The notes under the pieces were generated by a model. It saw nothing but the letters and a program-made list of their open reading frames with translations, ran no database searches and was not told the origin of the DNA. A program made the translations under genes and the position numbers. A stretch of DNA of 64,000 nt, taken from positions 32,792 through 96,791 of IMG/VR virus record IMGVR_UViG_3300021139_001840. One strand, written 5' to 3'. This stretch comes from a virus. This document shows positions 10,171 to 30,631 of this stretch, in pieces (position 1 is the first letter of the stretch; every line of letters starts with the position of its first letter).

Positions 10171-10950
10171 ATGTCAGATCATTATCAAACACTAAATGTT
10201 CCCCGCGGAGCAACGCAAGAAGAAATTAAAAAGGCTTATCGCAAATTAGCCGGGCAATATCATCCAGATAAAGGTGGTGATAAAGTAAAGTTTCAGGAAA
10301 TTCAAGCCGCATACTCTGTATTAGGTGATGATCAAAAAAGAGCACAATACGATAATCCTGGACAAAATATTCATTTTGAATTTGGCAGTCCCGGAGGTTT
10401 TGATTTTAGTTCCATTTTTAGTATGTTTGGACAGCAAGTTCATCAACAATCACATCGTCAAAGTCATACACGCATGAGTTTGTGGGTAACACTACAAGAT
10501 GTCGCACAAGGCGGAAAACGCCCAGTTACTGTTGGTACTAGCCACGGTACTATGAATATTGAAATTGAAATTCCTTTGGGCATTGAAGATGGGGATAATG
10601 TTCAGTATCCAAAATTGGGGCCCGGCGGTACAGATTTAATTGTTAATTTCCGCATACATCCTAATCCTAAATGGGCACGAGCTGGGTTACATTTAACCAC
10701 TGAACATTCTATTAGTATTTGGGACTGTATGGTTGGTGGCACAACAGAAATACGTGATATATTAGGCAACCAAATTAATCTTACCATTCCTGCACTTACA
10801 CAGCCTGGCAGTTTATTGCGTTTAAAGGGCAGAGGGTTATCATCGCGTCAAGGAATCACAGGTGATTTATTGGTTAGAATTCAAGCCAAAATGCCATCAA
10901 ATATTAGCACAGAATTATCCGAACTTATTAAACAAGAACAAAAAAAATAG
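10171..10950 (+). CDS. dnaJ: DnaJ/CbpA-like co-chaperone
   Basis: J domain with HPD motif plus C-terminal DnaJ domain, no zinc finger. Confidence 0.9.
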   Translation: MSDHYQTLNVPRGATQEEIKKAYRKLAGQYHPDKGGDKVKFQEIQAAYSVLGDDQKRAQYDNPGQNIHFEFGSPGGFDFSSIFSMFGQQVHQQSHRQSHTRMSLWVTLQDVAQGGKRPVTVGTSHGTMNIEIEIPLGIEDGDNVQYPKLGPGGTDLIVNFRIHPNPKWARAGLHLTTEHSISIWDCMVGGTTEIRDILGNQINLTIPALTQPGSLLRLKGRGLSSRQGITGDLLVRIQAKMPSNISTELSELIKQEQKK

Positions 10951-11013
10951 CCATAACAGTTGTGTTTGCGACAAAATTGCTATATACTATTACAGTACCA
11001 AGCAAAGGAAAAC

Positions 11014-14376: not shown

Positions 14377-15201
14377 ATGCGTACTATTGTAATTTACCCC
14401 GGTCGTTATCAACCCCCACACAAAGGTCATAAATCTTCTTATGATTATTTGACAAAAAAGTTTGGTGAAAATAACGTTTTTGTAGCCACGTCAGATGTTG
14501 TTGCTCCAATGACTAGCCCTTTTAGTTATCCAGATAAAGTAGAAATGCTTGCCAAATTGGGAATTCCAGCTAGTCACATTGTGCAAGTTCGGAACCCATA
14601 TCAAGCGCAGGAAATTACACGTGATATTTCTAATCCTGAAGATACAGCATTGGTATTTGCTGTATCTGAAAAAGATATGACTGATGAAAAGCCACGTTTT
14701 ACGTTTGGAGTGAAGAAAAACGGTGAGCCATCTTACATGCAACCATATCCAGAAAATGGTAAAAAATTGCAACCATTAACTAAACACGGTTATGTTATGG
14801 TAACTCCGACTACTACATTTAAAGTTAAAGGAAAAGACGCCAATTCTGCTACAGCAATACGCAAACTGTATATAGATGGAAATGACAATGACCGTAAACA
14901 AATTATCCATGATTTATATGGTGTCGATGATTCAGCAATTAAAGATATTTTTGACAAGAAATTAGGCGTAGCTAAAAAGACTAAAGAAGTAGTATTACAA
15001 CCGCCTCCACTTGATGCCAATGTATTAGATACCCCGGCGCCATTGCAACGTGAAAATAAAAAATACCAAGCAAAAAAAGCACGTTTATTAGAATCAACTA
15101 TACTAGCTGAACGTAAAGCTGCACATTGTTATCGTTCCTATGACGAAGATTTAATACCTAATTACATAGACGAAAAAACAGGCAGAAAATTTTACCGGTG
15201 A
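14377..15201 (+). CDS. HIGH-motif nucleotidyltransferase (cytidylyltransferase-like)
   Basis: YPGRYQPPHKGH and SATAIR motifs. Confidence 0.8.
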   Translation: MRTIVIYPGRYQPPHKGHKSSYDYLTKKFGENNVFVATSDVVAPMTSPFSYPDKVEMLAKLGIPASHIVQVRNPYQAQEITRDISNPEDTALVFAVSEKDMTDEKPRFTFGVKKNGEPSYMQPYPENGKKLQPLTKHGYVMVTPTTTFKVKGKDANSATAIRKLYIDGNDNDRKQIIHDLYGVDDSAIKDIFDKKLGVAKKTKEVVLQPPPLDANVLDTPAPLQRENKKYQAKKARLLESTILAERKAAHCYRSYDEDLIPNYIDEKTGRKFYR

Positions 15202-16231: not shown

Positions 16232-16266
16232 GCCGCTATCAGCAATGTTAGCGGTTTTGTTTTTTT
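16232..16266 (+). terminator. intrinsic terminator
   Basis: GCCGCTA..TAGCGGT hairpin followed by T run. Confidence 0.75.
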
Positions 16267-16281
16267 GCACTAAATATATTA

Positions 16282-18024
16282 ATGAACATTCAAGAACTTA
16301 AATCTTATAATCTAGCCGATGCAGTAAAGTTTCATGACCATCTTAATCCTTTATTGTGGGATAGGCAAGAACATTTACACCCCGAAATAAAGGATCAATT
16401 ATTAGCCATTGCCGCTGATTTTAGCGAATTTTTGGGAGTTAAAGATTTAGAACTTAAAGACATAACAATATCTGGTAGCAATGCCGCTTATTCTTATACG
16501 CCACACTCAGACATAGATTTACACTTAATTGTTGATTTATCCAATGAAGCTAATAACGAAGTTTATCGCGAGTTATTTGATGCTAAGAAATTTATATATA
16601 ATAGCGAAAATAAAATTACCATAAAAGGTATTCCAGTTGAGTTATATGTACAAGATGCTGGACAGGCGCATCATAGTCAAGGAATTTATAGTATTTTAAA
16701 TAATAATTGGATACAAGTACCTCGTAGAAAACATGCTGACATAGATGACATGAGTGTTCGTAGCAAATATCGAGATTTAAGCAAACGTATTCGAGAAGCT
16801 ATCAAAACTAATTCTACAGAAAAAATGTCCGAGGTTATGGATAAAATAAGAGCTTTGCGTCAAACTGGTCTTGCTGAACATGGAGAATTTGGTGCTGAAA
16901 ATTTAGCATTCAAACTGCTCCGCAATAAAGGTGATTTAGAAAAATTATCCAAAGCTCGTAAAGCAGCAAAAAGTCAAGAATTAAGTTTAAAAGAACGCGA
17001 ACGTACGCCTACCCCAGTTGTATATGGATATAAATCTGATCGAGATTACATTGATGAAGTAGGTATTACTCCTGATGGTACTGATCCTAGCACTTGTGAA
17101 TTTACCAATGAAGGACAATTAAACGAAGTAGGTATTACGCCTGATGGTACTGATCCTAGCACTTGTGAATTTACCAATGAAAATGATAATAATCAATCAG
17201 AAACAAATATCATTGATGACTTTGTAAAATTTTGTATTGACAAATTAAAATTAGATAATCCTCCTAAATTAAGATTACGCCGAGATCCAACATGGTCACA
17301 ACGCAATAAAACATTTGGAAGATTTAATCCTCAAACAGGTGAGTTAGAGGTGGCGGTAGGATCTAGACATATTATGGATACTCTTCGTACCCTGGCACAC
17401 GAACTTACACACCAACACCAGCACGAAACTATCGATATGCCAGATACAGCAGGAGAAACTGGAAGCGAGTTTGAAAATGAAGCTAATGCTCGCGCTGGCA
17501 TAATTATGCGCGACTATGGTAGTATGCATCCTGAATTGTTTACTGACAATATTATTGACGAAGGATACGGAGCCATTACACCTGCTGGCGAAAAAATTGT
17601 TAAATGGCAACAAGATAAACTTGCTGGAAAAGAATTTGCCATTCAAGGTTATAGAATTAAATTTACTGATAAAGGTCTTTTGATTTTTAAAGGTGCTGAT
17701 TTAATTTTTAAAAAACCCGGAGATTATTCCAATCCTACTAATTTGGATATGACCAAGGCTAGGCGATATATTACTAATTTGTCTAGAAATTGGAAACCAG
17801 ATCCTATAGTAAATGAAGCTACTGGCTATATCCCCACTGCCGCAGAAGCACATGATCCACGTTTTGAAATGGCACTTACTGTAGATATACGCCCAGGTGC
17901 GCTTGGCAAAAATGCCAATAAGTTATTATTAGATACTGATAGCCAAGGTCGTCCACAAGAACTACGTCCAGATGGCATAGTACATCGTATGATGGAAGAA
18001 TTAGAATTGTTTAAAAGGAATTAA
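16282..18024 (+). CDS. multi-module protein: Pol-beta-type nucleotidyltransferase + zincin (HExxH) metallopeptidase-like domain
   Basis: SGSNA..SDIDLH..VELY; TLAHELTH..ENEANA; internal peptide repeat. Confidence 0.75.
   Translation: MNIQELKSYNLADAVKFHDHLNPLLWDRQEHLHPEIKDQLLAIAADFSEFLGVKDLELKDITISGSNAAYSYTPHSDIDLHLIVDLSNEANNEVYRELFDAKKFIYNSENKITIKGIPVELYVQDAGQAHHSQGIYSILNNNWIQVPRRKHADIDDMSVRSKYRDLSKRIREAIKTNSTEKMSEVMDKIRALRQTGLAEHGEFGAENLAFKLLRNKGDLEKLSKARKAAKSQELSLKERERTPTPVVYGYKSDRDYIDEVGITPDGTDPSTCEFTNEGQLNEVGITPDGTDPSTCEFTNENDNNQSETNIIDDFVKFCIDKLKLDNPPKLRLRRDPTWSQRNKTFGRFNPQTGELEVAVGSRHIMDTLRTLAHELTHQHQHETIDMPDTAGETGSEFENEANARAGIIMRDYGSMHPELFTDNIIDEGYGAITPAGEKIVKWQQDKLAGKEFAIQGYRIKFTDKGLLIFKGADLIFKKPGDYSNPTNLDMTKARRYITNLSRNWKPDPIVNEATGYIPTAAEAHDPRFEMALTVDIRPGALGKNANKLLLDTDSQGRPQELRPDGIVHRMMEELELFKRN
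17056..17181 (+). repeat. two 57-bp direct repeats (69-bp period) encoding EVGITPDGTDPSTCEFTNE
   Basis: 17056-17112 and 17125-17181 differ at one synonymous position. Confidence 0.95.
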
Positions 18025-18026
18025 CA

Positions 18027-19367
18027 ATGAAAGCTCGTGAATTTATTATCGAATCTGCACAGACAACACTAGGTGGATTTAAAGTCACTCCGTTACATAT
18101 TGAAGATCAAGGTGTTGAAGAATCTGACATTAGTGGGTTATTAGCAGCCGGCCAATTTAATAAACAATTTAGAATTACAGCAAATATATACGGTGTCATA
18201 AAACACTTTAAGGTCAAAGCTCAGAGCGCACGAATCGCACAACATAAAGTTGAGATTCACCACCCCGGGGCTAAAATTTTAAATGTAGAAGAAATTACAA
18301 ATGAAGCTATTGGGTTAAATGCTCCACATCGCCGAATGAGTCGCGATGAGTTACAAGGTTATACCGATCGTATTAAAACTGGTACTAAGACAAAGAAAGA
18401 TAGATTTGCTCCAATCATACACGGTAGCAATATCAAAGCAATTACTAAAGATGACGAAGGTACCGAATGGGATTTAGATGATTTAGCCCGACAAATCACT
18501 ACCCGCCCTCGTTCATTATTAGGCACTAATGCTAAAATGAGTAAGAGTGCTACAGAAGGCGAAATTGTTTATGACTTAACATTGCCAGCATTAAGCGGTG
18601 TTGTTGTGGACGAGGAAACAGGCGATTTTGTAGAAATTACTACTTGCCCTGGTGCTGGTGGTTGTCAATTATTTTGTTACGCTCGTAAAGGTGGATATGT
18701 AATGTTCCCTGCTAGTAGTATGTCAGCTGCACAAGCATTAAACTTTTTAGTCAATGACCCTGCTGGATATATGGCCATGGTTAACAAAGAAATACAAGGT
18801 CTTAAAGGCAAAGCAGACAAGCATGGTATTAGATTAGTTGTACGCTGGCATGATGCTGGAGATTTCTTTAGTAAAGAATATTTAGATCTAGCATTTAACG
18901 TTGCTCGTACTAATCCAGATGTAAAATTTTATGCTTATACAAAAATAGCCGCGGCTGCGACTGCCAACAAACCAGATAATTTTATTGTTAACTTTAGTTC
19001 GGGAAGTAAACGCGGTGAAGAAAAGCAAATTGAACTACACAAAGCTCAAGGAAACGCAGTGAAAGATGCTGTAACATTACCCAAAGACTTGTTCCGCACA
19101 TTGTTTGTTACGGATGCTAAAGGCAAATATGTTAAAGATACCAAAGGTCGTACACAAGTTAAAAGTCCTGAAGCATGGGAAGAATTTAAAAAAATGCTGG
19201 CCACTAGGTATAAAATTGATCCAGCATCAATTATCACATACGATCAAATGTTAACAATTCCTGAAGGCCCTCAACCTAAGTGGAATGTGGTTATATTTCC
19301 AGCAGGACACGGAGACCGTGCTGCCAACAGATTGGATGTAATTAACAGTTTTTTAATGTTCCACTAA
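18027..19367 (+). CDS. multi-module protein with Gp88-like (Cys-cluster, radical-SAM-like) domain
   Basis: TCPGAGGCQLFCYARKG, VRWHDAGDF, FYAYTK; N-terminus MKAREFIIE. Confidence 0.65.
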   Translation: MKAREFIIESAQTTLGGFKVTPLHIEDQGVEESDISGLLAAGQFNKQFRITANIYGVIKHFKVKAQSARIAQHKVEIHHPGAKILNVEEITNEAIGLNAPHRRMSRDELQGYTDRIKTGTKTKKDRFAPIIHGSNIKAITKDDEGTEWDLDDLARQITTRPRSLLGTNAKMSKSATEGEIVYDLTLPALSGVVVDEETGDFVEITTCPGAGGCQLFCYARKGGYVMFPASSMSAAQALNFLVNDPAGYMAMVNKEIQGLKGKADKHGIRLVVRWHDAGDFFSKEYLDLAFNVARTNPDVKFYAYTKIAAAATANKPDNFIVNFSSGSKRGEEKQIELHKAQGNAVKDAVTLPKDLFRTLFVTDAKGKYVKDTKGRTQVKSPEAWEEFKKMLATRYKIDPASIITYDQMLTIPEGPQPKWNVVIFPAGHGDRAANRLDVINSFLMFH

Positions 19368-19368
19368 A

Positions 19369-20244
19369 ATGATTTTAAACGATTTTATCCAACCTAAACT
19401 AAAGTTTAGTCGTGAAAAACTAGACGCAGTTCTTGTTGAGCTTTGCGATATGGTTATCGAAGGTCAACAAGATAATCCAGACTTTTATGGTATGGTAGCT
19501 GCCGCGGTATTAGATCCTCGAGGTAGATTAGTCACTGGTGTAAATTATCTATATGGAAATTCAAGAATCCATGCTGAACGAGCAGCCATAGACAAGTATG
19601 AAGAAGAGTATGGAGAATTGCCAAAAGGCAGTATTGTAATTACTACACTGAGCCCATGCTGTGAAGATACTGGCGATAATCGCTATGGTGTTAGCTGTAC
19701 AGATTTATTAAATGAAAAACATGTCAAATTAGCCTATTGTGGGTATCAAGATCCCACACAGGACAGTAAAAATAGTTTTATAGTTATTGTCACTGAAAAT
19801 GAAAAATTAAAATCACTCTGTAAAAAATTTGCTGATACATTTTTGGACAAAGGCATTACTGAAAGTGCTGAATCAAGTCGTGCCCAACAGTTTATTGACA
19901 GCGTATATAGTCAGTATCCAGATTGGCCTTATGGCCAAGCAGATAAAGTTATGGTATGGGGTGAGGGCGAAGATCAACAATTTGCCGCGTTCAAACTTAA
20001 ACCTGGAACGGCACCTGACACAGTAGAAATAGATTGGATTATGGCTGGCCCCGAACAGCGCAAAGGCGTTGGTAGTCGCGCTATTAAAGAATTACAGCGA
20101 CAAGCAAAAGAGGCCGGTATCAAATTAACATTATACCCTTGGGCTAAAGGCAATGTAAGTCAAGCATCACTGACTAGGTTATACAAACGTCATGGATTTA
20201 AACCTGTCGCAAAAGGTGCTAAGCCAATGCGCTGGAACTGCTAA
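19369..20244 (+). CDS. zinc-dependent deaminase (CDA/RibD-like) fused to GNAT-like domain
   Basis: HAE...TLSPC...C deaminase motif; QRKGVGS acetyl-CoA motif and LYKRHGF. Confidence 0.75.
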   Translation: MILNDFIQPKLKFSREKLDAVLVELCDMVIEGQQDNPDFYGMVAAAVLDPRGRLVTGVNYLYGNSRIHAERAAIDKYEEEYGELPKGSIVITTLSPCCEDTGDNRYGVSCTDLLNEKHVKLAYCGYQDPTQDSKNSFIVIVTENEKLKSLCKKFADTFLDKGITESAESSRAQQFIDSVYSQYPDWPYGQADKVMVWGEGEDQQFAAFKLKPGTAPDTVEIDWIMAGPEQRKGVGSRAIKELQRQAKEAGIKLTLYPWAKGNVSQASLTRLYKRHGFKPVAKGAKPMRWNC

Positions 20245-20847
20245 ATGAGATTTTTTGAAATAGCCCGCATACCAAAAAGCCAATTAGATGGGTGGGGCGA
20301 TGCAGATACCATAACCCCACAGCAAGAACCTGTAGGTTCAAAACCCTTGCCAGGTGGTAGTGGATACAAATATCACGTAAATCGCAAAGGCAACGATAAT
20401 ATAGAAATTACTTTGTATGACAAAGGAGAAATTATTGCCGAATTAGATTTAGAAGAATTAGGAGCTCCCATTCCACTTTGGCGAGTTGAAACTGTTGTTG
20501 CTACTCCCGAATATCAAGGTCGAGGCTTAGGTATGGCATTATATGGTATAGCATTAAGTATATTAAAATTAACTCTAGTAGCAGGCGAAACACAAACTCA
20601 ACACGGTGCTCGCCAATGGCTTAAACTAAGTCAGATACCCGGTGTAGAAGTTATGGGTATGAAAACTGCTCCTAAAAAAGATTATAACCCTGGACCAGAT
20701 AATCAAGTATTATGGTCGGGACCTGAATACCATACATATACTTTCCCTGTAGCACAAGGATCTAAATCAATGAAAAGTGCCCAGCGCGGTAATGGAATAT
20801 ATAATTCAGCTGGCGCATCTATGATTGCCAAATGGACTGGCAAATAA
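20245..20847 (+). CDS. GNAT-fold acetyltransferase-like protein
   Basis: PEYQGRGLGMALY motif A; QTQHGARQW. Confidence 0.7.
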   Translation: MRFFEIARIPKSQLDGWGDADTITPQQEPVGSKPLPGGSGYKYHVNRKGNDNIEITLYDKGEIIAELDLEELGAPIPLWRVETVVATPEYQGRGLGMALYGIALSILKLTLVAGETQTQHGARQWLKLSQIPGVEVMGMKTAPKKDYNPGPDNQVLWSGPEYHTYTFPVAQGSKSMKSAQRGNGIYNSAGASMIAKWTGK

Positions 20848-20876
20848 TACTAAAAATATAATACGCTAAATACAGT

Positions 20877-21164
20877 ATGACAAAACAATTTGTTCGCATA
20901 CTGAGTAATATTGACTGTGATTGGGAAGGTTTATCTCCCACATACAGACTATATGTTAACGATGAGTTATTTTCTGAACGTACTTGGCGCTGGACCGATA
21001 AAGTTTTACAGGAAAATTTACAAGTTGAGGCAGAACCTGGAATTTATGAATTAAAATATGAGCTGGTACCTCCTCATTTAGCCACTTTTAAAGTGGGCAG
21101 TTTATCTGTAGCTTATGGGCCAGCTGAGATCGTCGACAACACACATTTTAGGATTACAGCATGA
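20877..21164 (+). CDS. hypothetical protein
   Basis: 95 aa, TAAATA 4 nt upstream of ATG. Confidence 0.7.
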   Translation: MTKQFVRILSNIDCDWEGLSPTYRLYVNDELFSERTWRWTDKVLQENLQVEAEPGIYELKYELVPPHLATFKVGSLSVAYGPAEIVDNTHFRITA

Positions 21165-21367
21165 GATTACATGAATTTGTTAATTTGCAAGAAGAGGCAT
21201 CAGTTGGGGCAACTGCTAGCGGCAGTGTTGCCACTGTAGCAATGCCGCTAGGCGCTGTACAAAGAAGAATACCAGCAGATTCATTTTTTATCGGAGTTGA
21301 AACTATAGATTCTACTCCTAATACTCCTAAAGAGTATAAAACATATAAGGAAAAATCTAAAGTTTAA
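21161..21367 (+). CDS. small hypothetical protein, probably virion-internal
   Basis: MRLHEF..LQEEASVGATASGSVA. Confidence 0.65.
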   Translation: MRLHEFVNLQEEASVGATASGSVATVAMPLGAVQRRIPADSFFIGVETIDSTPNTPKEYKTYKEKSKV

Positions 21368-21743
21368 CCAATTTATTTCTTGATTTATTTCTTTGTATTG
21401 AACCAACACCACGATAATACCCCTCAGGGCATCTATCTGATTTAACACTATCTCTTCCTTTAACGCCGCCCGGCCCTCCCCCTGTTTCAGGTATACGATT
21501 TGCCCAATTATTGCTTTCGGCAACATTCCATAATTTGCTGTAGTATCTTCCAGCAGATTTCATTTCTTCTTTATTATCAGTTTCTAATAAAATTTCGGTA
21601 TCGACGTCATAACCATAATCTTGTATATGCAAAGTCCAATCAACACCCGAACCTTCATATTTAAATGGATTTTTAGATGGTTGACCTAAATATTGTAACC
21701 CTGTTATTCTGCGAGTCTTTTTGTAGAGATAGTAAATACTCAT
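21357..21743 (-). CDS. short, possibly degenerate GIY-YIG homing endonuclease
   Basis: YYLYKKT..TGLQYLGQ..NPFKYEGSG..WANRIPE; only 128 aa. Confidence 0.7.
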   Translation of the reverse strand: MSIYYLYKKTRRITGLQYLGQPSKNPFKYEGSGVDWTLHIQDYGYDVDTEILLETDNKEEMKSAGRYYSKLWNVAESNNWANRIPETGGGPGGVKGRDSVKSDRCPEGYYRGVGSIQRNKSRNKLVKL

Positions 21744-21812
21744 GCTGATTGCTCCTTTAAAGCATTAGGGTAGTTGGGGATTACAGTCCCGCGAACTACA
21801 CTTCTATTTAGT
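21744..21812 (-). ncRNA. conserved structured 5' leader of GIY-YIG gene (copy 2)
   Basis: TAAATA, stem GTAGTT/AACTAC with inner GGGA/TCCC, then CTAATGCTTTAAAGGAGCAATCAGCATG. Confidence 0.7.
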
Positions 21813-21852
21813 TAATTTAACTAAATAATAGATAATATATAAAGGATTTATA

Positions 21853-22293
21853 ATGCTTGCTGAATTATTAAAAGTGCTACTTGCTTCTACATTTACTTAT
21901 TACCTTAAAGCACACTTTTTTCATTGGTCAGTAGAAGGCAAAGACTTCTATCAATATCACAAATTCCTACAAAAAATCTACGAAGATGCTTACGGGGCTG
22001 TAGATACTATTGCGGAATTTATTCGCACACTAGACGAATATGCCCCGGGAAGCCTAACTCGTTATCAAGAACTATCACGTATTCAAGATCAAACTAAAGT
22101 GCCAAGAGCACAACTAATGATAGAAGAGTTATTGCATGACTCACATATTATGATTGAACTTCTCAATGAATGTTTTGCTGCTGCCACAGCAGAAAATAAA
22201 CAAGACATCGCAAATTTTATTGCTGAAAGATTAACTGCTACTAATAAGTATATCTGGATGCTATCAAGTTTTTTAAAAGAATCTAGAGAGTGA
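21853..22293 (+). CDS. dps: Dps/ferritin-like protein
   Basis: KAHFFHWSVEG..FYQYH..YE...D.IAE..R..W.L ferroxidase pattern. Confidence 0.9.
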   Translation: MLAELLKVLLASTFTYYLKAHFFHWSVEGKDFYQYHKFLQKIYEDAYGAVDTIAEFIRTLDEYAPGSLTRYQELSRIQDQTKVPRAQLMIEELLHDSHIMIELLNECFAAATAENKQDIANFIAERLTATNKYIWMLSSFLKESRE

Positions 22294-22294
22294 T

Positions 22295-23524
22295 ATGGAT
22301 AATGAATTTTACAGCATAGTAGAAAAATTAGCTATTCTTGAAGGACGTATTGCTCCCAAGGATAAAGAAACATTGTCTGCGGCAAAACAAAAGAAGCCAG
22401 CACTTTTTAATAATTTAAAAAAAGCTGATGAAAATGTTATACCTGATGTTGGCGGCGTTCCTGTTGCTGAAGCTAATATGGAAGAAGATGTAGTATCCAA
22501 AGTAAAAGCATCACTAGCTGATTATTTAAAATCTGCCGAAGAAGAATTAAAACAAGATTCAGATTTAATCAAAAAGAAAAAACAAGATTTAGATCTAAAG
22601 AAAAAAGAATTAAAGGATTTAGACTTACAACAAAAAGCTCATCAAGAAGTTGACGAAGCTGATGAAGACGATGAAGACGATGAAGAAGGTGATGACGATT
22701 TATTCTATGTTGTTTTACATGACCGCGATGATGACTCAACATTTGTTGGCGAAATTTATAAGCAAGATGGCCGTTGGCGCGAAGGCAATGTCAGTGGAAA
22801 TCCTCCATATAATTGGGGTGGATCACACACTTATATGAGTTATTTGACACCTCAAGATATCTGGCAACATATTCAAAATGATTTCCGTCGCGGGTTTGAT
22901 ATTGCTGGCCCATTTAGCGACCAGCAAAAAGCATTAGACTACGCAGAATATGAATTTGGAACTGAAGAATTAGACGAAGACCACAGAAAACTTGAAGTAG
23001 GCGACCGCGTTATGGTTATGGGACCAAATCATTATCAAGGTGAATTTGCTAAGGTTGAAGAATTTAGTCCGTCAGGTAAATTTGTTGTAGTAAAATTTGA
23101 CAATGGCGATGAAGCAAGTATGCATTTATCAGATGTTGAATTTCACAATGATCAAGAAGATGTCGAAGATTGGGAAGAAGAATTGGATGAAAACCCAACA
23201 GAAGCTCCTCCGCAATCAGCTTCAGGTGGTGGAGGGAATCCCACATACGCAGAAAGTACTACAGCGCCAGTAAAAACAGTTCATGTACCAGTGGAATGTG
23301 GCGATACTGCTATTGGCGGAGCAGGTGGAGCAGGCGGTGGCACACTATTAGTTGAACTACATGGTGATGAACGTGATGGATTTTGTATTAAACGTGCTGG
23401 ACGAGAATTACCAACAAGATTTAAAACATTAGCAGAAGCTGAATTAGCATTAGAAATGTATGTAGCGCATCGTAAGACCAAACACGATGCTGAACAATCT
23501 ACTGATTATCTTGAAGAAAAATAA
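22295..23524 (+). CDS. acidic multi-module hypothetical protein (KOW/SH3-like segment)
   Basis: LEVGDRVMVMGP..GEFAKV; acidic linkers. Confidence 0.7.
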   Translation: MDNEFYSIVEKLAILEGRIAPKDKETLSAAKQKKPALFNNLKKADENVIPDVGGVPVAEANMEEDVVSKVKASLADYLKSAEEELKQDSDLIKKKKQDLDLKKKELKDLDLQQKAHQEVDEADEDDEDDEEGDDDLFYVVLHDRDDDSTFVGEIYKQDGRWREGNVSGNPPYNWGGSHTYMSYLTPQDIWQHIQNDFRRGFDIAGPFSDQQKALDYAEYEFGTEELDEDHRKLEVGDRVMVMGPNHYQGEFAKVEEFSPSGKFVVVKFDNGDEASMHLSDVEFHNDQEDVEDWEEELDENPTEAPPQSASGGGGNPTYAESTTAPVKTVHVPVECGDTAIGGAGGAGGGTLLVELHGDERDGFCIKRAGRELPTRFKTLAEAELALEMYVAHRKTKHDAEQSTDYLEEK

Positions 23525-23526
23525 AC

Positions 23527-25440
23527 ATGAATATATTTGATTTGTTCGAAGGCGACTCTGCTCGCGATAAATGGAATAAAGAATCCGCCAAACGTGATGC
23601 GGCCGCTAAAAAGCGTGAAGAAGAAATGACAGCACGACATAATCGAGGCAAAGAAGATATGTCAGGCGCAATTGATCGTTTAGAAAAACATTTAAATACT
23701 CCTGTTAAAGAACATGATATGTCGGAAGGCTGGAGTGACGCGATTGTTAGTCAAAGAACCGGCCGACCACGCACACCCTACTCAGTGTATATCAAAGGTA
23801 AGAAGTGGCGAGATTTTGAAAACGAAGATCATGCAGAAGCTGTAGCAAATAAATTACGAGCCAAATTCAAAGCTGACGGTCGTGACGCCAGTGTTATTAC
23901 TATTGCCCCTACTGACTATGATAAAGATATAGTAAAAAAAGAAGCAGCAGTAAACGACGTAAACTTTGGTCATACAGTAACTAAAGGTGCTTGGATTGTA
24001 CACCAGGATGGCAAGAAACCAATTAGATTTAAGACACACATCGGCGCTAAAAAATATGCTGAAAAAAACGGCGGCAAAGTTTACTCAAGTGAGTTCTACG
24101 CAGACAAGATTCAATCACAGGTTGATGAGCATGGTGGTGGTGTAAACGCTATGAATAAATATATTTCATGGCGCAATAGTGCTAACAAAGAACGTGGAAT
24201 CACAAAATACCAACCTGTAGGCAAACCTGCCGAAAGTTTACGAGAGTTTGCCCTAGGTGATGAAGGTGAGGAAGATACTTTACTCAAGTTTGCTCGCTTA
24301 TGGTGGAATGGTGACGAAGCTACACAAAATAAAGTTGAAGAAGTATTAGCCAAGATGGGTTGGACTATTGGTGAAAATGAATCTGGCGATGAAAACGATG
24401 CTTGTTTTGTTGTTCGCAATGGTGACATGAACGGCGATAGTTATATTGCGTTTGGCAAAGAAGATTTAAATGAAGGTTCAATGTCCACTGCCGCACATCA
24501 TCATGCTGGTCCAGAATTTCCAGGATATTGGAAAGGAACTGACTCTGCTAGTTTATCACGTAGACGTATGGTGGGTGATGATATAGAAGAAGGTATTGAA
24601 GGTAACATGACCGTTAAGTCCTCACCACTATCAGAGCCATTACGTAAACGTAATTTTGTTGCTAAAAATTCTCCCATTACCGGTGCTGGAAAACACACCA
24701 ATCAGTTAAAAAAAGCCATGGCAGCAGGCCGCAATGCCAAGCATAAAGCACAAACTATTCCATTCGATGAAAGTATGAATTTTATGGAGTGGGCAGTAAA
24801 CAATGACTATAATTTTGCAAAAAATCCCGCTGTTTACAAAGAAGCCAAAGAAGCATTTAAAAAAAAAATAAACGAAATATCTAAAGATAAAATTGAAAAG
24901 TACTACACTGATGTTATTAAAAAACAAGCTGACAACATTGGTATCCAGCCTAATATGTATAGCAAGCTAGAACCAAAACATCAACGTGGTATTGATAGAG
25001 CAAATAATCGTTTATACAAAAATAATGAAGAGCGCGGACCAATAGCGCCGCACGAAACATATTATGGCGCAATGGATGAAGCCAAAGGTTTAGGTACACA
25101 AGTTAAAATCATCAAAGGCAGTGATGCGGGCAAAATTGGATGGATTAGAGAAATTAAACTTGGTTCTTTTAAAGGAGCTCCAAAAACTTATTATATTGAT
25201 CTCGAAGATGGTGGGCAAGCAAATAATTTACCTGGCACTGCATTACGCATAATTAAAAACAAAGTAGATGAAAGTTTACAGCCAGGCGAATACTATGTTT
25301 GGACCGTATACTTTGATAATGGCGGTAAACAAAATATTAAAGTAACCTCAGATAATTTTGATCCAACAGCATATTATGCCAATCAAAACAAAGCGGTAGT
25401 AAATGTAGATTATAATTGGGAGAAACATAATGAAATTTAA
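23527..25440 (+). CDS. multi-module hypothetical protein punctuated by hydrophobic-x-Glu linkers
   Basis: 637 aa; repeated LFE/VKE/MSE/VDE/LRE/LNE/IEE/INE/MDE junctions. Confidence 0.75.
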   Translation: MNIFDLFEGDSARDKWNKESAKRDAAAKKREEEMTARHNRGKEDMSGAIDRLEKHLNTPVKEHDMSEGWSDAIVSQRTGRPRTPYSVYIKGKKWRDFENEDHAEAVANKLRAKFKADGRDASVITIAPTDYDKDIVKKEAAVNDVNFGHTVTKGAWIVHQDGKKPIRFKTHIGAKKYAEKNGGKVYSSEFYADKIQSQVDEHGGGVNAMNKYISWRNSANKERGITKYQPVGKPAESLREFALGDEGEEDTLLKFARLWWNGDEATQNKVEEVLAKMGWTIGENESGDENDACFVVRNGDMNGDSYIAFGKEDLNEGSMSTAAHHHAGPEFPGYWKGTDSASLSRRRMVGDDIEEGIEGNMTVKSSPLSEPLRKRNFVAKNSPITGAGKHTNQLKKAMAAGRNAKHKAQTIPFDESMNFMEWAVNNDYNFAKNPAVYKEAKEAFKKKINEISKDKIEKYYTDVIKKQADNIGIQPNMYSKLEPKHQRGIDRANNRLYKNNEERGPIAPHETYYGAMDEAKGLGTQVKIIKGSDAGKIGWIREIKLGSFKGAPKTYYIDLEDGGQANNLPGTALRIIKNKVDESLQPGEYYVWTVYFDNGGKQNIKVTSDNFDPTAYYANQNKAVVNVDYNWEKHNEI

Positions 25441-26005
25441 AAATATTGTAGCAATGACGCTAGTAGTATTTGCAGGCGCAGTTTCAGCCGAGCCATTACA
25501 CATTTGCAAAAACATTGACTATGCACTTTGTGCTGCTAGTCCAACAACACCAACAGGTAAAACTATGAAGGTTGATGGCAAAACATTCAAAGAAGGTATG
25601 GCAGTTTGTCCCATACTTCACGGCGATGCTGTAGCCAATTTGAGTTTAATGAATGGATCGTGTGATGTTCCTGGACCAGGTAAAATTTGGAGTTTGTTTG
25701 GAGTTCCGGCTCAAACAAACTATCCGCAACAACCAACATGGGCAGTAGCCCCAGCCGCATTTAGAAGTTTTACAATTGGCACAACATCAACAACCGGTAT
25801 GAGCAATATGTGGAGTTTTCCATGCGATATACAAGCACAAAAAGTCAATGGCGTAAAATTGGCATCTTGCTACGGTCCTATCATGGAAAGTCCTTGGACA
25901 AATGACCATGTCAAACCAGGCCAAATTGGATTTACGCAAGCCGCCGAAGGTGTAACATATCCTGTTGGTGGTAATGCTCCTGCTAATATCGTAATTAAAA
26001 AGTAA
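25430..26005 (+). CDS. secreted Cys-rich protein
   Basis: Sec signal peptide (AVSA), six Cys. Confidence 0.7.
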   Translation: MKFKNIVAMTLVVFAGAVSAEPLHICKNIDYALCAASPTTPTGKTMKVDGKTFKEGMAVCPILHGDAVANLSLMNGSCDVPGPGKIWSLFGVPAQTNYPQQPTWAVAPAAFRSFTIGTTSTTGMSNMWSFPCDIQAQKVNGVKLASCYGPIMESPWTNDHVKPGQIGFTQAAEGVTYPVGGNAPANIVIKK

Positions 26006-27973: not shown

Positions 27974-30631
27974 TTGAGTTATGTAGATTGTCTATACGAT
28001 CGCGAACATGATCGTATCCATGTTGTAGAACGTGTCAACGGCGAACGTGTTTACAAAGAATATCCAGCTGATTATATCTTTTACTACAACGATCCGCGTG
28101 GTAAATTTACTTCAATATATGGCACTCCTGTTGCTCGTTTTTCCAGTCGCAACGCCAAAGAGTTTCGAAAAGAAGTTGCTATCCAACGTGGCAAACAACT
28201 TTATGAATCGGATATCAATCCTATATTCCGTTGTTTAGAAGAAAACTATAAAGGCAAAGATGCTCCTGAGCTTCAAACAGCGTTTTTTGACATTGAAGTA
28301 GACTTCCACAAAGACAAAGGATTTTCTCCTACCACTGATCCGTTCAACGCCATTACTGCCATTTCAGTTTACCTACAATGGATGAATCAACTGGTTACTT
28401 TAGTTGTTCCGCCCGCACATATGAGTTTGGCAACAGCGCAGGAAGTTGCCGCTGACTTTGAAAATTGTATTGTGTTCGAGCATGAAGCTGATATGCTTAA
28501 AACATTCCTTGACTTAATTGAAGATGCTGATGTTATATCCGGCTGGAATAGTGAAGGATATGACGTGCCATATACTATCAATCGTATTACTAGAATACTA
28601 AGCAAAGACGACACCCGTAGATTTTGTTTATGGGGCCAATACCCTAAACAACGAGAATTCGAACGCTTTGGCGCCACTAGTACAACTTATGATATTGTTG
28701 GTCGTGTACACATGGACTACATGCAATTATATCGCAAATACACATACGAAGAGCGACATAGTTACAGTTTAGATGCTATTGGTGAATATGAATTAAGTGA
28801 AAGTAAAACAGCATACGAAGGTACGCTAGATCAATTATATAATCAAAATTTTAAAAAGTTTATTGAATATAATAGACAAGATACATTGTTACTTGACAAG
28901 TTAGATAAAAAGTTGCGGTTTATCGAATTAGCAAATGAATTAGCTCACGCCAATACTGTATTACTTCCAACTACAATGGGAGCGGTGGCTGTAACTGAGC
29001 AAGCTATTATTAACGAAGCACATGAACGTGGGCTTGTTGTGCCAAATCGTAAACAAAGATTAACTGATGATGAAACTGCGGCTGCTGGTGCCTATGTTGC
29101 GTATCCCAAAAAAGGAACACATGAATGGGTAGGTGCTGTAGACATTAACTCTCTATATCCAAGTGCTATCCGCGCACTAAACATGGGAATGGAAACAGTA
29201 GTTGGGCAACTAAGACCTGTAATGACTGAACGTTATATCGACGAATTAGTATCTAAAGGAAAAACATTTGCCGCGGCTTGGGAAGGTGTATTTGCCAGTT
29301 TGGAATATACAGCAATCATGGAACAACAGCGTGGCACTGAAATTACTATTGACTGGCAGGACGGGGAACATTCAGTACATTCTGCTTCTGAAATATGGGA
29401 AATGATTTTTAATAGTAATCAACCTTGGATGTTAACAGCCAATGGCACTATCGTTACTTACGAAAAGAAAGGTGTCGTTCCTGGATTATTAGAGCGTTGG
29501 TATGCCGAACGAAAAGAAATGCAAGAAAAGAAAAAAGAAGCTACCGATCCTAAAGAAATTGCATTTTGGGATAAACGACAACTTGTAAAAAAGATTAACT
29601 TGAATAGCCTATACGGGGCAATTCTTAATCCGCATTGTAGATTTGCGGACAAACGTATTGGACAATCAACCACATTATCTGGACGCAGTATTGCTCGGCA
29701 TATGGCAGGTTATATCAACGAATGTATTACCGGCAAGTTTGATCATTTGGGTGATGCTATTGTATATGGCGATACAGACTCGTGTTATTTTAGTGCCTGG
29801 CCCGTTCTCAAAAAAGAAGTTGCGGCAGGCAATATGGAATGGAGCAAAGAAATTTGTATTCAATTATATGATTCAATTGCTGAACAAGTAAATTTATCGT
29901 TTCCAGCATTTATGGAACAAGCGTTCCACTGCCCTAGAGAAGCTGGTGAATTAATCAAAGCCGGTAGAGAATTAATAGCATCTAACAGTTTGTTCATTAC
30001 TAAAAAACGTTATGCTGTATTAATTTATGATTTAGAAAATAAACGTCTTGACATTAATGGGTCACATGGCAAAATTAAAGCTATGGGCTTAGATTTAAAA
30101 CGAAGCGATACACCAAAAGTTATTCAAGAATTTTTGTATGAAATTTTAGAAAAAGTATTGACAGGTACTACGAGAGATGAAATCGTAGACCGTATTCGAG
30201 AATTTAAATATGCGTTTGCTGAGCGTCCAGCCTGGGAAAAAGGAACTCCTAAACGTGTCAACAATTTAACCAAATATGGAAAAGCCGAAGAAGCTGAAGG
30301 CAAAGCAAATATGCCAGGGCATGTTCGAGCAGCATTGAACTGGAACAATATGCGTCGCATGAACAGCGACAATTATTCTATTGCGGTAGTTGACGGAATG
30401 AAAACCATTGTGTGTAAATTAAAACCCAATCCCATGGGATGGACTAGTATTGGATACCCAACTGACGAACAACGATTACCGGATTGGTTTAAAGAATTAC
30501 CCTTTGACGATGGATTAATGGAAGCTACTATTGTAGATCAAAAAATTGACAATTTATTAAGTGTATTAAACTGGGATTTAGCAAGTGCTACTAACACAGA
30601 AAATACATTCCAAACATTATTCGAGTTCTAA
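27974..30631 (+). CDS. family B DNA polymerase
   Basis: ExoI FDIE, ExoII GWNSEGYD, motif A DINSLYPS, motif B KINLNSLYG, motif C YGDTDS, KKRY; TTG start. Confidence 0.97.
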   Translation: MSYVDCLYDREHDRIHVVERVNGERVYKEYPADYIFYYNDPRGKFTSIYGTPVARFSSRNAKEFRKEVAIQRGKQLYESDINPIFRCLEENYKGKDAPELQTAFFDIEVDFHKDKGFSPTTDPFNAITAISVYLQWMNQLVTLVVPPAHMSLATAQEVAADFENCIVFEHEADMLKTFLDLIEDADVISGWNSEGYDVPYTINRITRILSKDDTRRFCLWGQYPKQREFERFGATSTTYDIVGRVHMDYMQLYRKYTYEERHSYSLDAIGEYELSESKTAYEGTLDQLYNQNFKKFIEYNRQDTLLLDKLDKKLRFIELANELAHANTVLLPTTMGAVAVTEQAIINEAHERGLVVPNRKQRLTDDETAAAGAYVAYPKKGTHEWVGAVDINSLYPSAIRALNMGMETVVGQLRPVMTERYIDELVSKGKTFAAAWEGVFASLEYTAIMEQQRGTEITIDWQDGEHSVHSASEIWEMIFNSNQPWMLTANGTIVTYEKKGVVPGLLERWYAERKEMQEKKKEATDPKEIAFWDKRQLVKKINLNSLYGAILNPHCRFADKRIGQSTTLSGRSIARHMAGYINECITGKFDHLGDAIVYGDTDSCYFSAWPVLKKEVAAGNMEWSKEICIQLYDSIAEQVNLSFPAFMEQAFHCPREAGELIKAGRELIASNSLFITKKRYAVLIYDLENKRLDINGSHGKIKAMGLDLKRSDTPKVIQEFLYEILEKVLTGTTRDEIVDRIREFKYAFAERPAWEKGTPKRVNNLTKYGKAEEAEGKANMPGHVRAALNWNNMRRMNSDNYSIAVVDGMKTIVCKLKPNPMGWTSIGYPTDEQRLPDWFKELPFDDGLMEATIVDQKIDNLLSVLNWDLASATNTENTFQTLFEF

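Follow-up and report, generated by a model that had tools for sequence, protein, structure and literature searches.

The genes between positions 16282 and 25440 of the window, a 64,000-nucleotide stretch of IMG/VR virus record IMGVR_UViG_3300021139_001840, probably encode cargo of the phage head, which would be targeted by N-terminal leaders, cut at module joints by a T4-type prohead protease, and delivered together with the DNA. We assign a probability of about 0.7 to this reading. The window is a fragment from an uncultured T4-like myovirus, none of whose close relatives has been cultured either. The proteins are probably packed, cut apart, and delivered because T4-style leaders occur together with module joints that carry the protease motif, and the interpretation of the first-pass annotation, which took the proteins for mix-and-match polyproteins, is supported. 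The packaging, docking, cleavage, and injection or ejection of the proteins, as well as the roles of the enzymes in the host, such as host takeover or anti-defence, are predictions from sequence. The features are as follows, with slashes marking the predicted cuts.

16256..16276, + strand: CTAAATA late-promoter-like motif; it directly follows an intrinsic terminator, and the ATG of 16282 is 5 nt downstream
16282..18024, + strand: 580-aa polyprotein; weak leader (MNIQE); Pol-beta nucleotidyltransferase (NTase), aa 1-238, ending LKE/R; linker 239-300 with a duplicated peptide, IDE/V and LNE/V; minigluzincin-like HExxH domain 301-427, ending IDE/G; module C 428-512, ending VNE/A; module D 513-580
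17056..17181, + strand: in-frame duplication, 57 nt, 98% identical, 69-nt spacing
18027..19367, + strand: 446-aa GP88 protein; leader MKAREFIIE/S (aa 1-9); conserved N-region 10-32, ending VEE/S; 57-aa insert module 33-89, ending VEE/I; then a TNE/A junction; GP88 Cys-cluster core 94-446
19369..20244, + strand: 291-aa deaminase-GNAT fusion; deaminase aa 1-165, ending ITE/S; GNAT 166-291
20245..20847, + strand: 200-aa protein starting MRFFEI (FFE/I), with a weak GNAT-like core, RGLGMALYG
21161..21367, + strand: 68-aa leader protein starting MRLHEFVNLQE/E/A; phrog_17311
21853..22293, + strand: Dps/ferritin-like gene (PF00210, E 2e-20), without leader, first gene of the second operon
22295..23524, + strand: 409-aa protein; leader MDNEFYSIVE/KLAILE/G; N-module ending VDE/A (aa 121); acidic insert 122-228, ending LDE/D; Tudor/SH3-like module 229-354 (Tudor match sub-threshold); C-module 355-409
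23527..25440, + strand: 637-aa protein; leader MNIFDLFE/G; several modules with bounds at LRE/F 240, LNE/G 316, INE/I 450, MDE/A 518, and VDE/S 582, including a KOW-like unit at 519-582

The N-termini quoted in the first-pass annotation were all found, namely MNIQEL (16282), MKAREFIIE (18027), MILNDF (19369), MRFFEI (20245), MRLHEFVNLQEE (21161), and MNIFDLFE (23527), and an additional leader, MDNEFYSIVEKLAILE, was identified at 22295. An N-terminus of about 10 residues ending in (L/I)-x-E, like the MKTYQEFIAE/A of T4 IPII and IPIII, is present at 18027 (MKAREFIIE/S), 21161 (MRLHEFVNLQE/), 22295 (MDNEFYSIVE/), and 23527 (MNIFDLFE/G), and the leaders at 16282 and 20245 match only moderately. 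The proposal that these starts are leaders holds for most of them but is not convincing for MILNDF, which has no Glu site and resembles the start of a deaminase fold. Two genes of the block, at 20877 and at 21853 (Dps), have no leader. For the NTase, the N-terminus may be partly fold rather than tag, because the NTase family likewise begins near residue 1 in Molly, a Maribacter phage outside the T4-like group.

Arrays of unrelated genes that begin with the same leader occur at about 90 related loci in IMG/VR, with up to eight consecutive genes starting with MRANEFIAE/A, MRAQEFITE/A, or similar sequences. The orthologues of the 21161 protein start with MKLFEIIGLKE, MRLYEIVGLQE, MRANEFILE, and MRAREFVRE. 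The strict leader 9-mer was found at 58 of 1345 ORF N-termini versus 1 of 6985 internal Met residues, and the leader is conserved as protein despite synonymous codon swaps (AGA and CGA, GAA and GAG, TTT and TTC). Most leader genes have no Shine-Dalgarno sequence and are stop-start coupled. The GP88-type member alone has at least 505 related loci in IMG/VR.

The short tripeptides quoted as joints in the first-pass annotation all exist, but many are chance occurrences, such as those at residues 172, 184, and 199 within the NTase helices, and with 1-3 Phi-x-E per 100 aa overall, the block proteins do not stand out from the genome median of 1.6. The position of the sites relative to the module borders, on the other hand, is far above chance and above the neighbouring genes, as had been proposed. 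Of the 20 well-supported homology breakpoints, 12 have an [ILVM]-x-E no more than 2 residues away (3.7 expected, p<3e-4), versus none of nine breakpoints in the neighbouring non-leader proteins. At the same 20 breakpoints, the control motifs Phi-x-D, Phi-x-K, Phi-x-Q, and non-Phi-x-E were not enriched, and [AGST]-x-E was enriched only weakly (8 versus 4 expected). The P1' residue is A, S, or G in 8 of the 12 junction sites, compared to 10 of 38 sites elsewhere. In addition, the P1 Glu and the P3 hydrophobic residue are kept at the junctions across many unrelated contexts, with variable flanking residues.

The expected gain, loss, and movement of modules exactly at the motifs was likewise observed among the relatives. 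Phi-x-E/[AS] comes before module D in 11 of 13 contexts, Phi-x-E borders the KOW unit on each side in all seven of its contexts, and [ILV]-x-E/A stands just before the GP88 core in most of about 70 distinct homologues, despite variable inserts of 0-400 aa. The 580-aa protein has orthologues as short as 232 aa and as long as 1087 aa, which differ by modules gained or lost at motif sites, and in L009 and L044 its HExxH module likewise behaves as shuffled cargo, with a leader of its own. For the 446-aa protein, the 57-aa insert is missing in L004 and L005 and is located in another gene in L008. For the 291-aa fusion, the GNAT is absent exactly from the junction in L030, L004, and L005, and further modules follow it in L003. 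For the 409-aa protein, the insert 134-227 is missing in L004, L005, and L030 (breakpoints 122-125 and 227). For the 637-aa protein, module 241-316 was found inside the GP88 orthologues of L006, L007, and L057, and L009 has a fusion of the KOW unit to GP88. The duplication at 17056..17181, which encodes E-VGITPDGTDPSTCEFTNE with Phi-x-E preceding each copy, is recent; the repeat is present as a single copy in the orthologues. Some breakpoints lack a canonical site, for example 295-309 in the 580-aa protein and, in the 637-aa protein, 153-156 and 399-413; at two junctions, TNE takes its place.

The AF2 model of the 580-aa protein consists of confident blocks at 8-237 and 306-421, with low pLDDT at 238-305 and 422-516, and the sites at 238, 259, 282, 427, and 512 are all within low-pLDDT linkers beside confident domains. 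The model of the 637-aa protein is poor, also around most of its junctions, with a confident C-domain beginning at 583.

The cargo named in the first-pass annotation was largely recovered. The Pol-beta NTase matches phrog_36119 (E 2e-47) and has the fold of CdnE, AadA, ANT, and MNT, with its match to Pfam NTP_transf_2 below the cut-off. The HExxH peptidase-like domain has a fold like that of the abylysin minigluzincin 4jiu (Foldseek probability 1.00, TM 0.57); its similarity to Tox-MPTase3 and M78 is weak and sub-threshold. The Gp88-like Cys-cluster domain is GP88 (PF17338, E 3e-35, 122 bits versus a cut-off of 24.4), for which a search by sequence found no solved relative. The zinc deaminase (dCMP_cyt_deam_1, PF00383, E 7e-8, 32.7 versus 25), in which the Zn-ligand spacing (SPCC...C) is atypical, and the GNAT of 19369 (Acetyltransf_1, PF00583, E 1.6e-5, 25.6 versus 20.7) both score above the Pfam gathering thresholds. 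Of the two GNATs proposed, the second (20245; phrog_15502) is sub-threshold (Acetyltransf_1, E 0.048), as is the KOW match of the proposed KOW-like units (E 7.6e-4).

The window's own contig, a 96.8-kb, 28%-complete fragment without head genes, contains no gp21-family protease (Peptidase_S77); the protease of the window phage would have to be deduced from a close relative, G001 (235,812 bp, rated 100% complete), which has the same cargo block. The Peptidase_S77 of G001 (E 5.6e-33) carries GELGHP and GVSSRGMGSL motifs that align to T4 gp21. The number of sites per 100 aa is 5.4 in the G001 scaffold, 4.7 in its protease, and 4.2 in its gp68-like protein, against a genome median of 1.6; the T4 values are 7.8 for gp22, 5.2 for gp21, and 4.3 for gp68. 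In the capsid protein of G001, the propeptide contains LNE/T shortly before the conserved VRR..PNLIA.D..GVQPM block, the T4 gp23 counterpart being LTE/A, and the capsid protein of the lineage is T4-type, with 62-65% identity to those of Melnitz, HTVC008M, and S-SRM01. In T4, cleavage by gp21 occurs after L/I-x-E, and the N-terminal 10 residues of IPIII are enough for packaging (PMC9026906).

The CTAAATA late-promoter-like motif was also found upstream of 21853, thus before both operons, and in G001 TAAATA is enriched 6-fold within 45 nt upstream of starts, including those of tail and scaffold genes. This motif, the sole indication of timing, suggests that the block genes may be late; the copy before 16282 is only 5 nt from the ATG, an odd spacing for a promoter. 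DnaJ-like and ClpB-like genes are located just upstream of the block, with conserved synteny, and an NMNAT-like gene of the window (14377-15201) has no leader.

Published mass spectrometry of the virions of cyanophage S-CREM2 (PMC10665884) detected ORF156, ORF6, ORF14, and ORF154. ORF156 is a homologue of the window NTase (E 6e-34), and the other three, all of them virion-detected enzymes, start with the leaders MKDFDSFLEE (ORF6), (V)KRFDAFLTE (ORF14), and MKNFSSFLTE (ORF154); only four ORFs in the S-CREM2 genome fit the 10-mer. The authors caution that virion preparations may contain co-purified cytoplasmic proteins of high abundance.

In the proposed mechanism, an amphipathic leader of ~9-16 residues, M-[KR]-x-x-E-[FIL]-[ILV]-x-E, would correspond to the capsid-targeting sequence of T4 and would dock the cargo protein on the prohead scaffolding core. 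A T4-type serine prohead protease (gp21 family) would trim the leader at head maturation and would also cut between modules, at exposed [ILVM]-x-E/[A/S/G] linkers. The predicted products are the nucleotidyltransferase, the minigluzincin-like peptidase, the GP88-type Cys-cluster protein, the deaminase, the acetyltransferase(s), and the KOW/Tudor-like units, which would remain in the head and then enter the cell with the DNA. Because one short site bounds every module, modules could be gained, lost, duplicated, or transferred from gene to gene and still be processed, which would account for the mix-and-match architectures among the relatives.

The proteins could instead be packaged via the leader, with the leader alone removed and the multi-domain chains kept intact in the head, the Phi-x-E linkers being flexible acidic joints. 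The T4 IPs and Alt, in which terminal propeptides alone are removed, and polyvalent proteins such as N4 vRNAP, which are packaged unprocessed, are precedents. This is unlikely, however, given that the P1 Glu and P3 hydrophobic residue are conserved at junctions in unrelated contexts, that the motif is specific relative to Phi-x-D and non-Phi-x-E with A, S, and G enriched at P1', and that the sites are in predicted disordered, protease-accessible linkers. The proteins might also be accessory, scaffold-like components of the prohead core that are broken down and leave the head before the DNA is packaged, and so never reach the host, as T4 gp22, gp67, and gp68 go to the core and are cut into fragments that leave the head. 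We regard this as very unlikely, since the site density within the modules is ordinary (1-3 versus 4-8 per 100 aa in scaffold proteins), the modules fold as enzymes and retain intact catalytic motifs, and an NTase homologue was detected in mature S-CREM2 virions.

The lack of Shine-Dalgarno sequences in most of the stop-start coupled leader genes, together with the DnaJ-like and ClpB-like genes upstream, would fit cytoplasmic multi-domain enzymes in which the N-terminal motif has some other role, for instance in efficient SD-less coupled translation or in recognition by the DnaJ/ClpB-like chaperones, and the junction motif is a by-product of module recombination. This explanation is improbable, because the leader is kept at the protein level through synonymous codon changes and matches the experimentally defined T4 targeting sequence in length and pattern, leader-bearing enzymes are among the S-CREM2 virion proteins, and a 3-residue motif is too short for guiding recombination. 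Polyvalent proteins (Iyer et al., 2017) freed by their own embedded HExxH metallopeptidase, a release mechanism proposed for that class, would be consistent with the minigluzincin-like domain in one protein and its weak Tox-MPTase3 and M78 similarity. The peptidase, however, is present in only one of seven proteins and the junction motif in all seven, the scaffold and capsid protein of G001 have the motif as well, and the HExxH module is itself shuffled cargo behind its own leader; self-release is accordingly highly improbable.

If the block proteins are leader-targeted, protease-cut head cargo, the T4 targeting and gp21 paradigm, so far limited to a few small coliphage internal proteins, would reach a large class of widespread uncultured aquatic T4-like phages, and a sequence rule would predict the enzymes delivered with the phage DNA, a first-minute arsenal against the host. 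It would also provide a mechanism for the kinases, NMNAT-like enzymes, and SAM hydrolase repeatedly found in cyanophage virions, for which no proposed targeting mechanism was found in the available part of PMC10665884, and a modular cargo format from nature that is of interest for engineering T4 for protein delivery. We lean slightly toward the broader view that the prohead protease is used like the polyprotein protease of an RNA virus, with the leader and the 3-residue joint forming a plug-in format for any small module. In that case, sequence could directly reveal which proteins thousands of uncultured phages inject, and the evolutionary unit of the arsenal would be the site-delimited module, not the gene.

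Among known systems, the phiKZ-like giant phages (phiKZ, 201phi2-1, and SPN3US) also have many head-internal proteins cut after Glu by a gp21-related protease (gp175/gp245), with propeptides thought to target the proteins to the prohead. Their motif, however, is S/A/G-x-E with other determinants, and the proteins are paralogous families of that lineage that have no CTS-like decapeptide and are not described as shuffled enzyme polyproteins. Membership in a phiKZ-type inner body was rejected, as [ILVM]-x-E is strongly and [AGST]-x-E only weakly enriched and the capsid protein is T4-type. Polyvalent proteins (Iyer et al., 2017, PMC5512222) likewise combine at least two biochemically disparate domains per polypeptide, as do the chain of NTase, HExxH peptidase, and two further modules and the deaminase-GNAT fusion of the block; they are predicted to enter the host with the DNA, proteolytic domain release has been proposed for them, and a putative zincin-like peptidase domain occurs in one block protein. 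They differ in that release would be by embedded peptidases, not at sites for a trans-acting prohead protease, and in that a T4-type leader is not described for them; their hallmark domains (MuF, ART, ParB, DarB-type methylase/helicase, ArdC, and relaxase) were not detected in the block proteins by Pfam/PHROGs.

For the T4-like cyanophages S-CREM2, S-CRM01, and S-SCSM1, PMC10665884 describes a virion kinase, SAM hydrolase, and NMNAT-like cytidylyltransferase, and places the NTase homologue ORF156 and its NMNAT-like neighbour in S-CREM2 virions; no leader or targeting mechanism was found noted in its available part. Three of these virion enzymes carry leaders of their own, with the pattern MKxFxxFLxE, but they are single-enzyme proteins, and the NMNAT-like gene of the window differs in having no leader.

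The closest counterpart is T4 itself. Mullaney and Black (1996) are reportedly the source for its capsid targeting sequence and gp21 processing. T4 IPI, IPII, IPIII, and Alt carry this sequence and are processed by gp21 (reviewed in PMC9026906 and PMC3012670). In both systems, the N-terminal leader spans about 10 residues, follows one pattern, and ends in Phi-x-E/A or S, a T4-family Peptidase_S77 is present in the lineage, the cargo is diverse and poorly conserved outside the leader, and its genes lie apart from the head-gene cluster. Each T4 cargo protein, however, is small and single, and processing removes nothing but its terminal propeptides. The cargo of the block is mostly recognisable enzymes, strung together in multi-module chains that reach 637 aa (1841 aa in relatives); the protease motif marks the joints at which modules shuffle between genes, and the relatives have arrays of as many as eight leader genes.

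The window spans positions 32792-96791 of a viral contig of 96.8 kb, estimated to be 28% complete (CheckV), and encodes a family-B DNA polymerase (27974-30631) with 42-50% identity to the polymerases of T4-superfamily jumbo phages. The same gene block is present in a close IMG/VR relative, G001 (235,812 bp, completeness rating 100%), and the G001 major capsid protein shares 62-65% identity with its counterparts in Methylophilales phage Melnitz, Pelagibacter phages Mosig and HTVC008M, and Synechococcus phage S-SRM01. These sequence matches indicate that the source phage is an uncultured aquatic T4-like myovirus of ~236 kb. A megablast search with the block gave zero matches among cultured phages, and tblastn with the GP88 protein of the block returned distant Streptomyces and archaeal-virus matches only, with no cultured T4-like carrier; its profile had no match among PDB sequences.

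The block genes are closely packed on the + strand in two runs, 16282-21367 and 21853-26005, and the features discussed below are as follows.

16282-18024, + strand: 580-aa protein with a Pol-beta nucleotidyltransferase (NTase), an HExxH domain and modules C and D
18027, + strand: 446-aa GP88 protein
19369, + strand: deaminase-GNAT protein, proposed joint after E165
20245, 20877 and 21161, + strand: three further block genes
21357-21743, - strand: homing-endonuclease-like gene (MSIYYLYKKT...) separating the two cargo operons
21853-22293, + strand: Dps/ferritin-like gene within the cargo block
22295, + strand: 409-aa protein
23527, + strand: 637-aa protein
25430-26005, + strand: 191-aa Cys-rich protein with a signal peptide (MKFKNIVAMTLVVFAGAVSA), overlapping the 3' end of the 637-aa gene

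Every N-terminus and tripeptide listed by the first-pass annotation was found in the window sequence. Among the domains that it named, GP88, the deaminase and one GNAT exceeded Pfam thresholds, whereas the KOW-like unit and the second GNAT were sub-threshold, as was a match to a Tudor-like domain. The NTase was supported by a phrog_36119 match (E = 2e-47), with a concordant GS...DID motif and fold (CdnE, AadA, ANT, MNT), and the predicted fold of the HExxH peptidase-like domain is that of the abylysin minigluzincin (4jiu). The deaminase (19369-19863) has HAE and an atypical second zinc motif, SPCC...C rather than PCxxC. No family match was found for the 191-aa Cys-rich protein. The synteny of the Dps gene is kept in most relatives, and in its G001 orthologue the tripeptide [ILVM]-x-E, hereafter Phi-x-E, is unusually frequent (6.2 per 100 aa). 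The site at 21357-21743 is unoccupied in the related loci L004 and L005, and L001 has another reverse-strand gene there, of 193 aa; the position resembles an insertion hot spot for selfish elements.

The T4 internal proteins IPII and IPIII begin with MKTYQEFIAE/A, the slash denoting a cut after Glu. Residues 1-10 of IPIII are enough for encapsidation, and the prohead protease gp21 cleaves after L/I-x-E (PMC9026906). In the window, the GP88 protein starts with MKAREFIIE/S, and in related IMG/VR loci a similar leader is found on long arrays of otherwise unrelated genes: eight consecutive genes of L042 start with MRAxEF[IL]xE, L104 has the starts MRASEFIVEA, MRAKEFITE, MRANEFIAEA and MRANEFIIEA, and comparable arrays occur in L031, L033, L037, L050 and L061. 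In the non-redundant set from related loci, the strict 9-mer M[KR]xx[ED][FILV][FILV]xE was present at 58 of 1345 ORF starts versus 1 of 6985 internal Met residues. The leader codons differ (AGA/CGA, GAA/GAG, TTT/TTC) while the amino acids are constant, which argues for selection on the peptide and rules out selection at the RNA level. For the window itself, the leaders claimed at 18027, 21161 and 23527 are strong, with 22295 also strong, and those at 16282 and 20245 are moderate, whereas that at 19369 is unconvincing (MILNDF without a Glu site). Gene 20877 and the Dps gene lack a leader.

No prohead protease was found in the window's own contig (28% complete). G001 encodes a Peptidase_S77 (88086-88730; E = 5.6e-33) that aligns with T4 gp21 at its catalytic motifs. 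The G001 scaffold, protease and gp68-like protein contain 5.4, 4.7 and 4.2 sites per 100 aa, respectively (genome median, 1.6), and T4 gp22, gp21 and gp68 contain 7.8, 5.2 and 4.3, the head-core proteins thus being motif-dense in both phages. In addition, the G001 capsid protein has LNE/T just ahead of the conserved block VRR..PNLIA.D..GVQPM, the T4 gp23 counterpart being LTE/A. Together, the protease, the site-dense core and the capsid LNE/T suggest that the lineage very probably retains the T4 cleavage rule.

Comparison with related loci by tblastn and blastp revealed that the block proteins are mosaics. The NTase is standalone (232 aa) or carries one to many added modules, reaching at most 1087 aa. 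A 57-aa insert of GP88 is missing in L004 and L005 and is located in another gene in L008; residues 241-316 of the 637-aa protein lie within the GP88 orthologues of L006, L007 and L057; and in L009 the KOW-like unit is fused to the N terminus of GP88 and the HExxH module forms its own leader gene. In L030, a GNAT deletion runs precisely from site to site. The differences in the insert, module 241-316, the KOW-like unit and the GNAT bear out the expectation that orthologues gain or lose modules exactly at the motifs.

Breakpoints were called by clustering the end-points of BLAST segments (HSPs) blind to the motif, those with at least 2 distinct HSPs being taken as supported (n = 20). Phi-x-E lay at most 2 residues from 12 of these (3.7 expected; 0 of 3000 randomisations as high), and Phi-x-D, Phi-x-K, Phi-x-Q, non-Phi-x-E and charged-x-E were unenriched. 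By the same procedure, 0 of 9 supported breakpoints in four neighbouring non-leader proteins fell at Phi-x-E, so the proposed coincidence of motif and module border was seen in the block and not in these neighbours. An acidic-linker bias of the BLAST end-points was ruled out because other Glu-containing motifs were unenriched, and junction-guided recombination because the motif spans just three degenerate codons, which is too short. Directly after the proposed cut, position P1' is occupied by A, S or G in 8 of the 12 junction sites, versus 10 of the 38 remaining sites. Phi-x-E directly precedes module D (A[ST]GYIP...) in 11 of 13 distinct upstream contexts and flanks the KOW unit on both sides in 7 of 7; the NTase ends in L/M-S-[LMV]-x-E in 13 of 15 cases; and [ILV]-x-E/A precedes the GP88 core, with variable inserts of 0-400 residues, in most of ~70 distinct homologues.

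For the 580-aa protein, an AlphaFold model (input alignment of 16 sequences) was confident at residues 8-237 and 306-421, and its low-confidence linkers, 238-305 and 422-516, contain all of the proposed sites 238, 259, 282, 427 and 512. Sites 172, 184 and 199, modelled inside NTase helices, presumably arose by chance or are protected. For the 637-aa protein the model was poor (mean pLDDT 43.6), with most junctions beyond its reach; its sole confident domain, at the C terminus, begins at 583, after VDE582. A repeat search, but not TRF, detected an in-frame 57-nt duplication (17056-17181, 98% identity) of a linker peptide beginning after Phi-x-E, which would yield an extra ~23-residue peptide if the sites are cut.

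The NTase has a homologue in the T4-like cyanophage S-CREM2, ORF156 (36% identity, E = 6e-34), next to ORF154 and ORF155. In the published virion proteome, ORF156 was detected with 6 unique peptides, and ORF155, ORF154 (cytidylyltransferase), ORF6 (SAM hydrolase) and ORF14 (kinase) were also included; its authors warn of possible co-purification of abundant proteins with the virions (PMC10665884). The translated genes begin with MKNFSSFLTE/A (ORF154), MKDFDSFLEE/F (ORF6) and (V)KRFDAFLTE/E (ORF14). Only four ORFs of the S-CREM2 genome have this T4-like 10-mer, three of them virion-detected non-structural enzymes. MKxFxxFLxE leaders occur on cyanophage enzymes reported to be virion-associated: ORF6, ORF13, ORF14 and ORF154 of S-CREM2 (OR473000.1), and g127 and g129 of S-CRM01. 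The passages of PMC10665884 consulted contain no mention of the leader, which would supply a mechanism for the presence of these enzymes in virions. The NMNAT-like cytidylyltransferase of the window (14377-15201) begins right at the catalytic motif (MRTIVIYPGRYQPPHKGH), and its homologues in L012, L044, S-CRM01 (g127) and S-CREM2 (gp154, a virion protein) have a leader-like N-terminal extension of 10-30 residues; the leader has apparently been lost or gained.

(C/A)TAAATA is found upstream of 16282, immediately past a terminator, and of 21853. In G001, TAAATA shows a 6-fold enrichment in the 45 nt preceding gene starts, among them those for the tail tube, sheath and scaffold, a pattern that would be consistent with T4-type late promoters. 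In the window, the T4 late-promoter octamer TATAAATA is unenriched (4 versus 10.7 expected); the relevant element is the shorter TAAATA. Many genes have TAAATA 4-7 nt before the ATG without a Shine-Dalgarno sequence (window 16256-16281 and 20860-20876; G001 upstream of 84737, 134714, 209615, 216552 and others), and other late genes have the usual spacing and AGGAG. If TAAATA is a late promoter, the mRNAs of the former would be leaderless or nearly so.

Overall, the best explanation, with a probability of about 0.7, is prohead-core targeting, leader removal, joint cutting and delivery with the DNA. The leader, resembling the T4 capsid-targeting sequence (CTS), would target each protein to the prohead core, where the prohead protease would take off the leader and cut the exposed inter-module joints, and the separate small enzymes would travel with the DNA into the host. 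Their role in host takeover or anti-defence is speculation. A few genes upstream of the block (10171-13293) lie a J-domain protein (MSDHYQTLNV...) and a 777-aa ClpA/ClpB-like double AAA+ ATPase, a synteny conserved in L001, L004, L005, L008, L035 and L037; these phage chaperones might hold the cargo polyproteins in a loadable state.

The rival readings are that the proteins are packaged but not cut internally, that the tag acts in the cytoplasm, that the proteins have a scaffold-like fate, and that the HExxH peptidase releases them. Each fits less well with the specificity of the motif, with the ordinary density of sites found inside modules and with the virion data. The HExxH peptidase was rejected as a general processing enzyme because only one protein carries it.

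Previous work has established the CTS and the gp21 rule and has put forward the idea of the CTS as a means for T4-like phages to load varied proteins (PMC9026906, PMC3012670); polyvalent proteins, with a proposed release by embedded peptidases, have also been described (PMC5512222). In the literature searched, we found no published description of T4-type protease-jointed cargo polyproteins.
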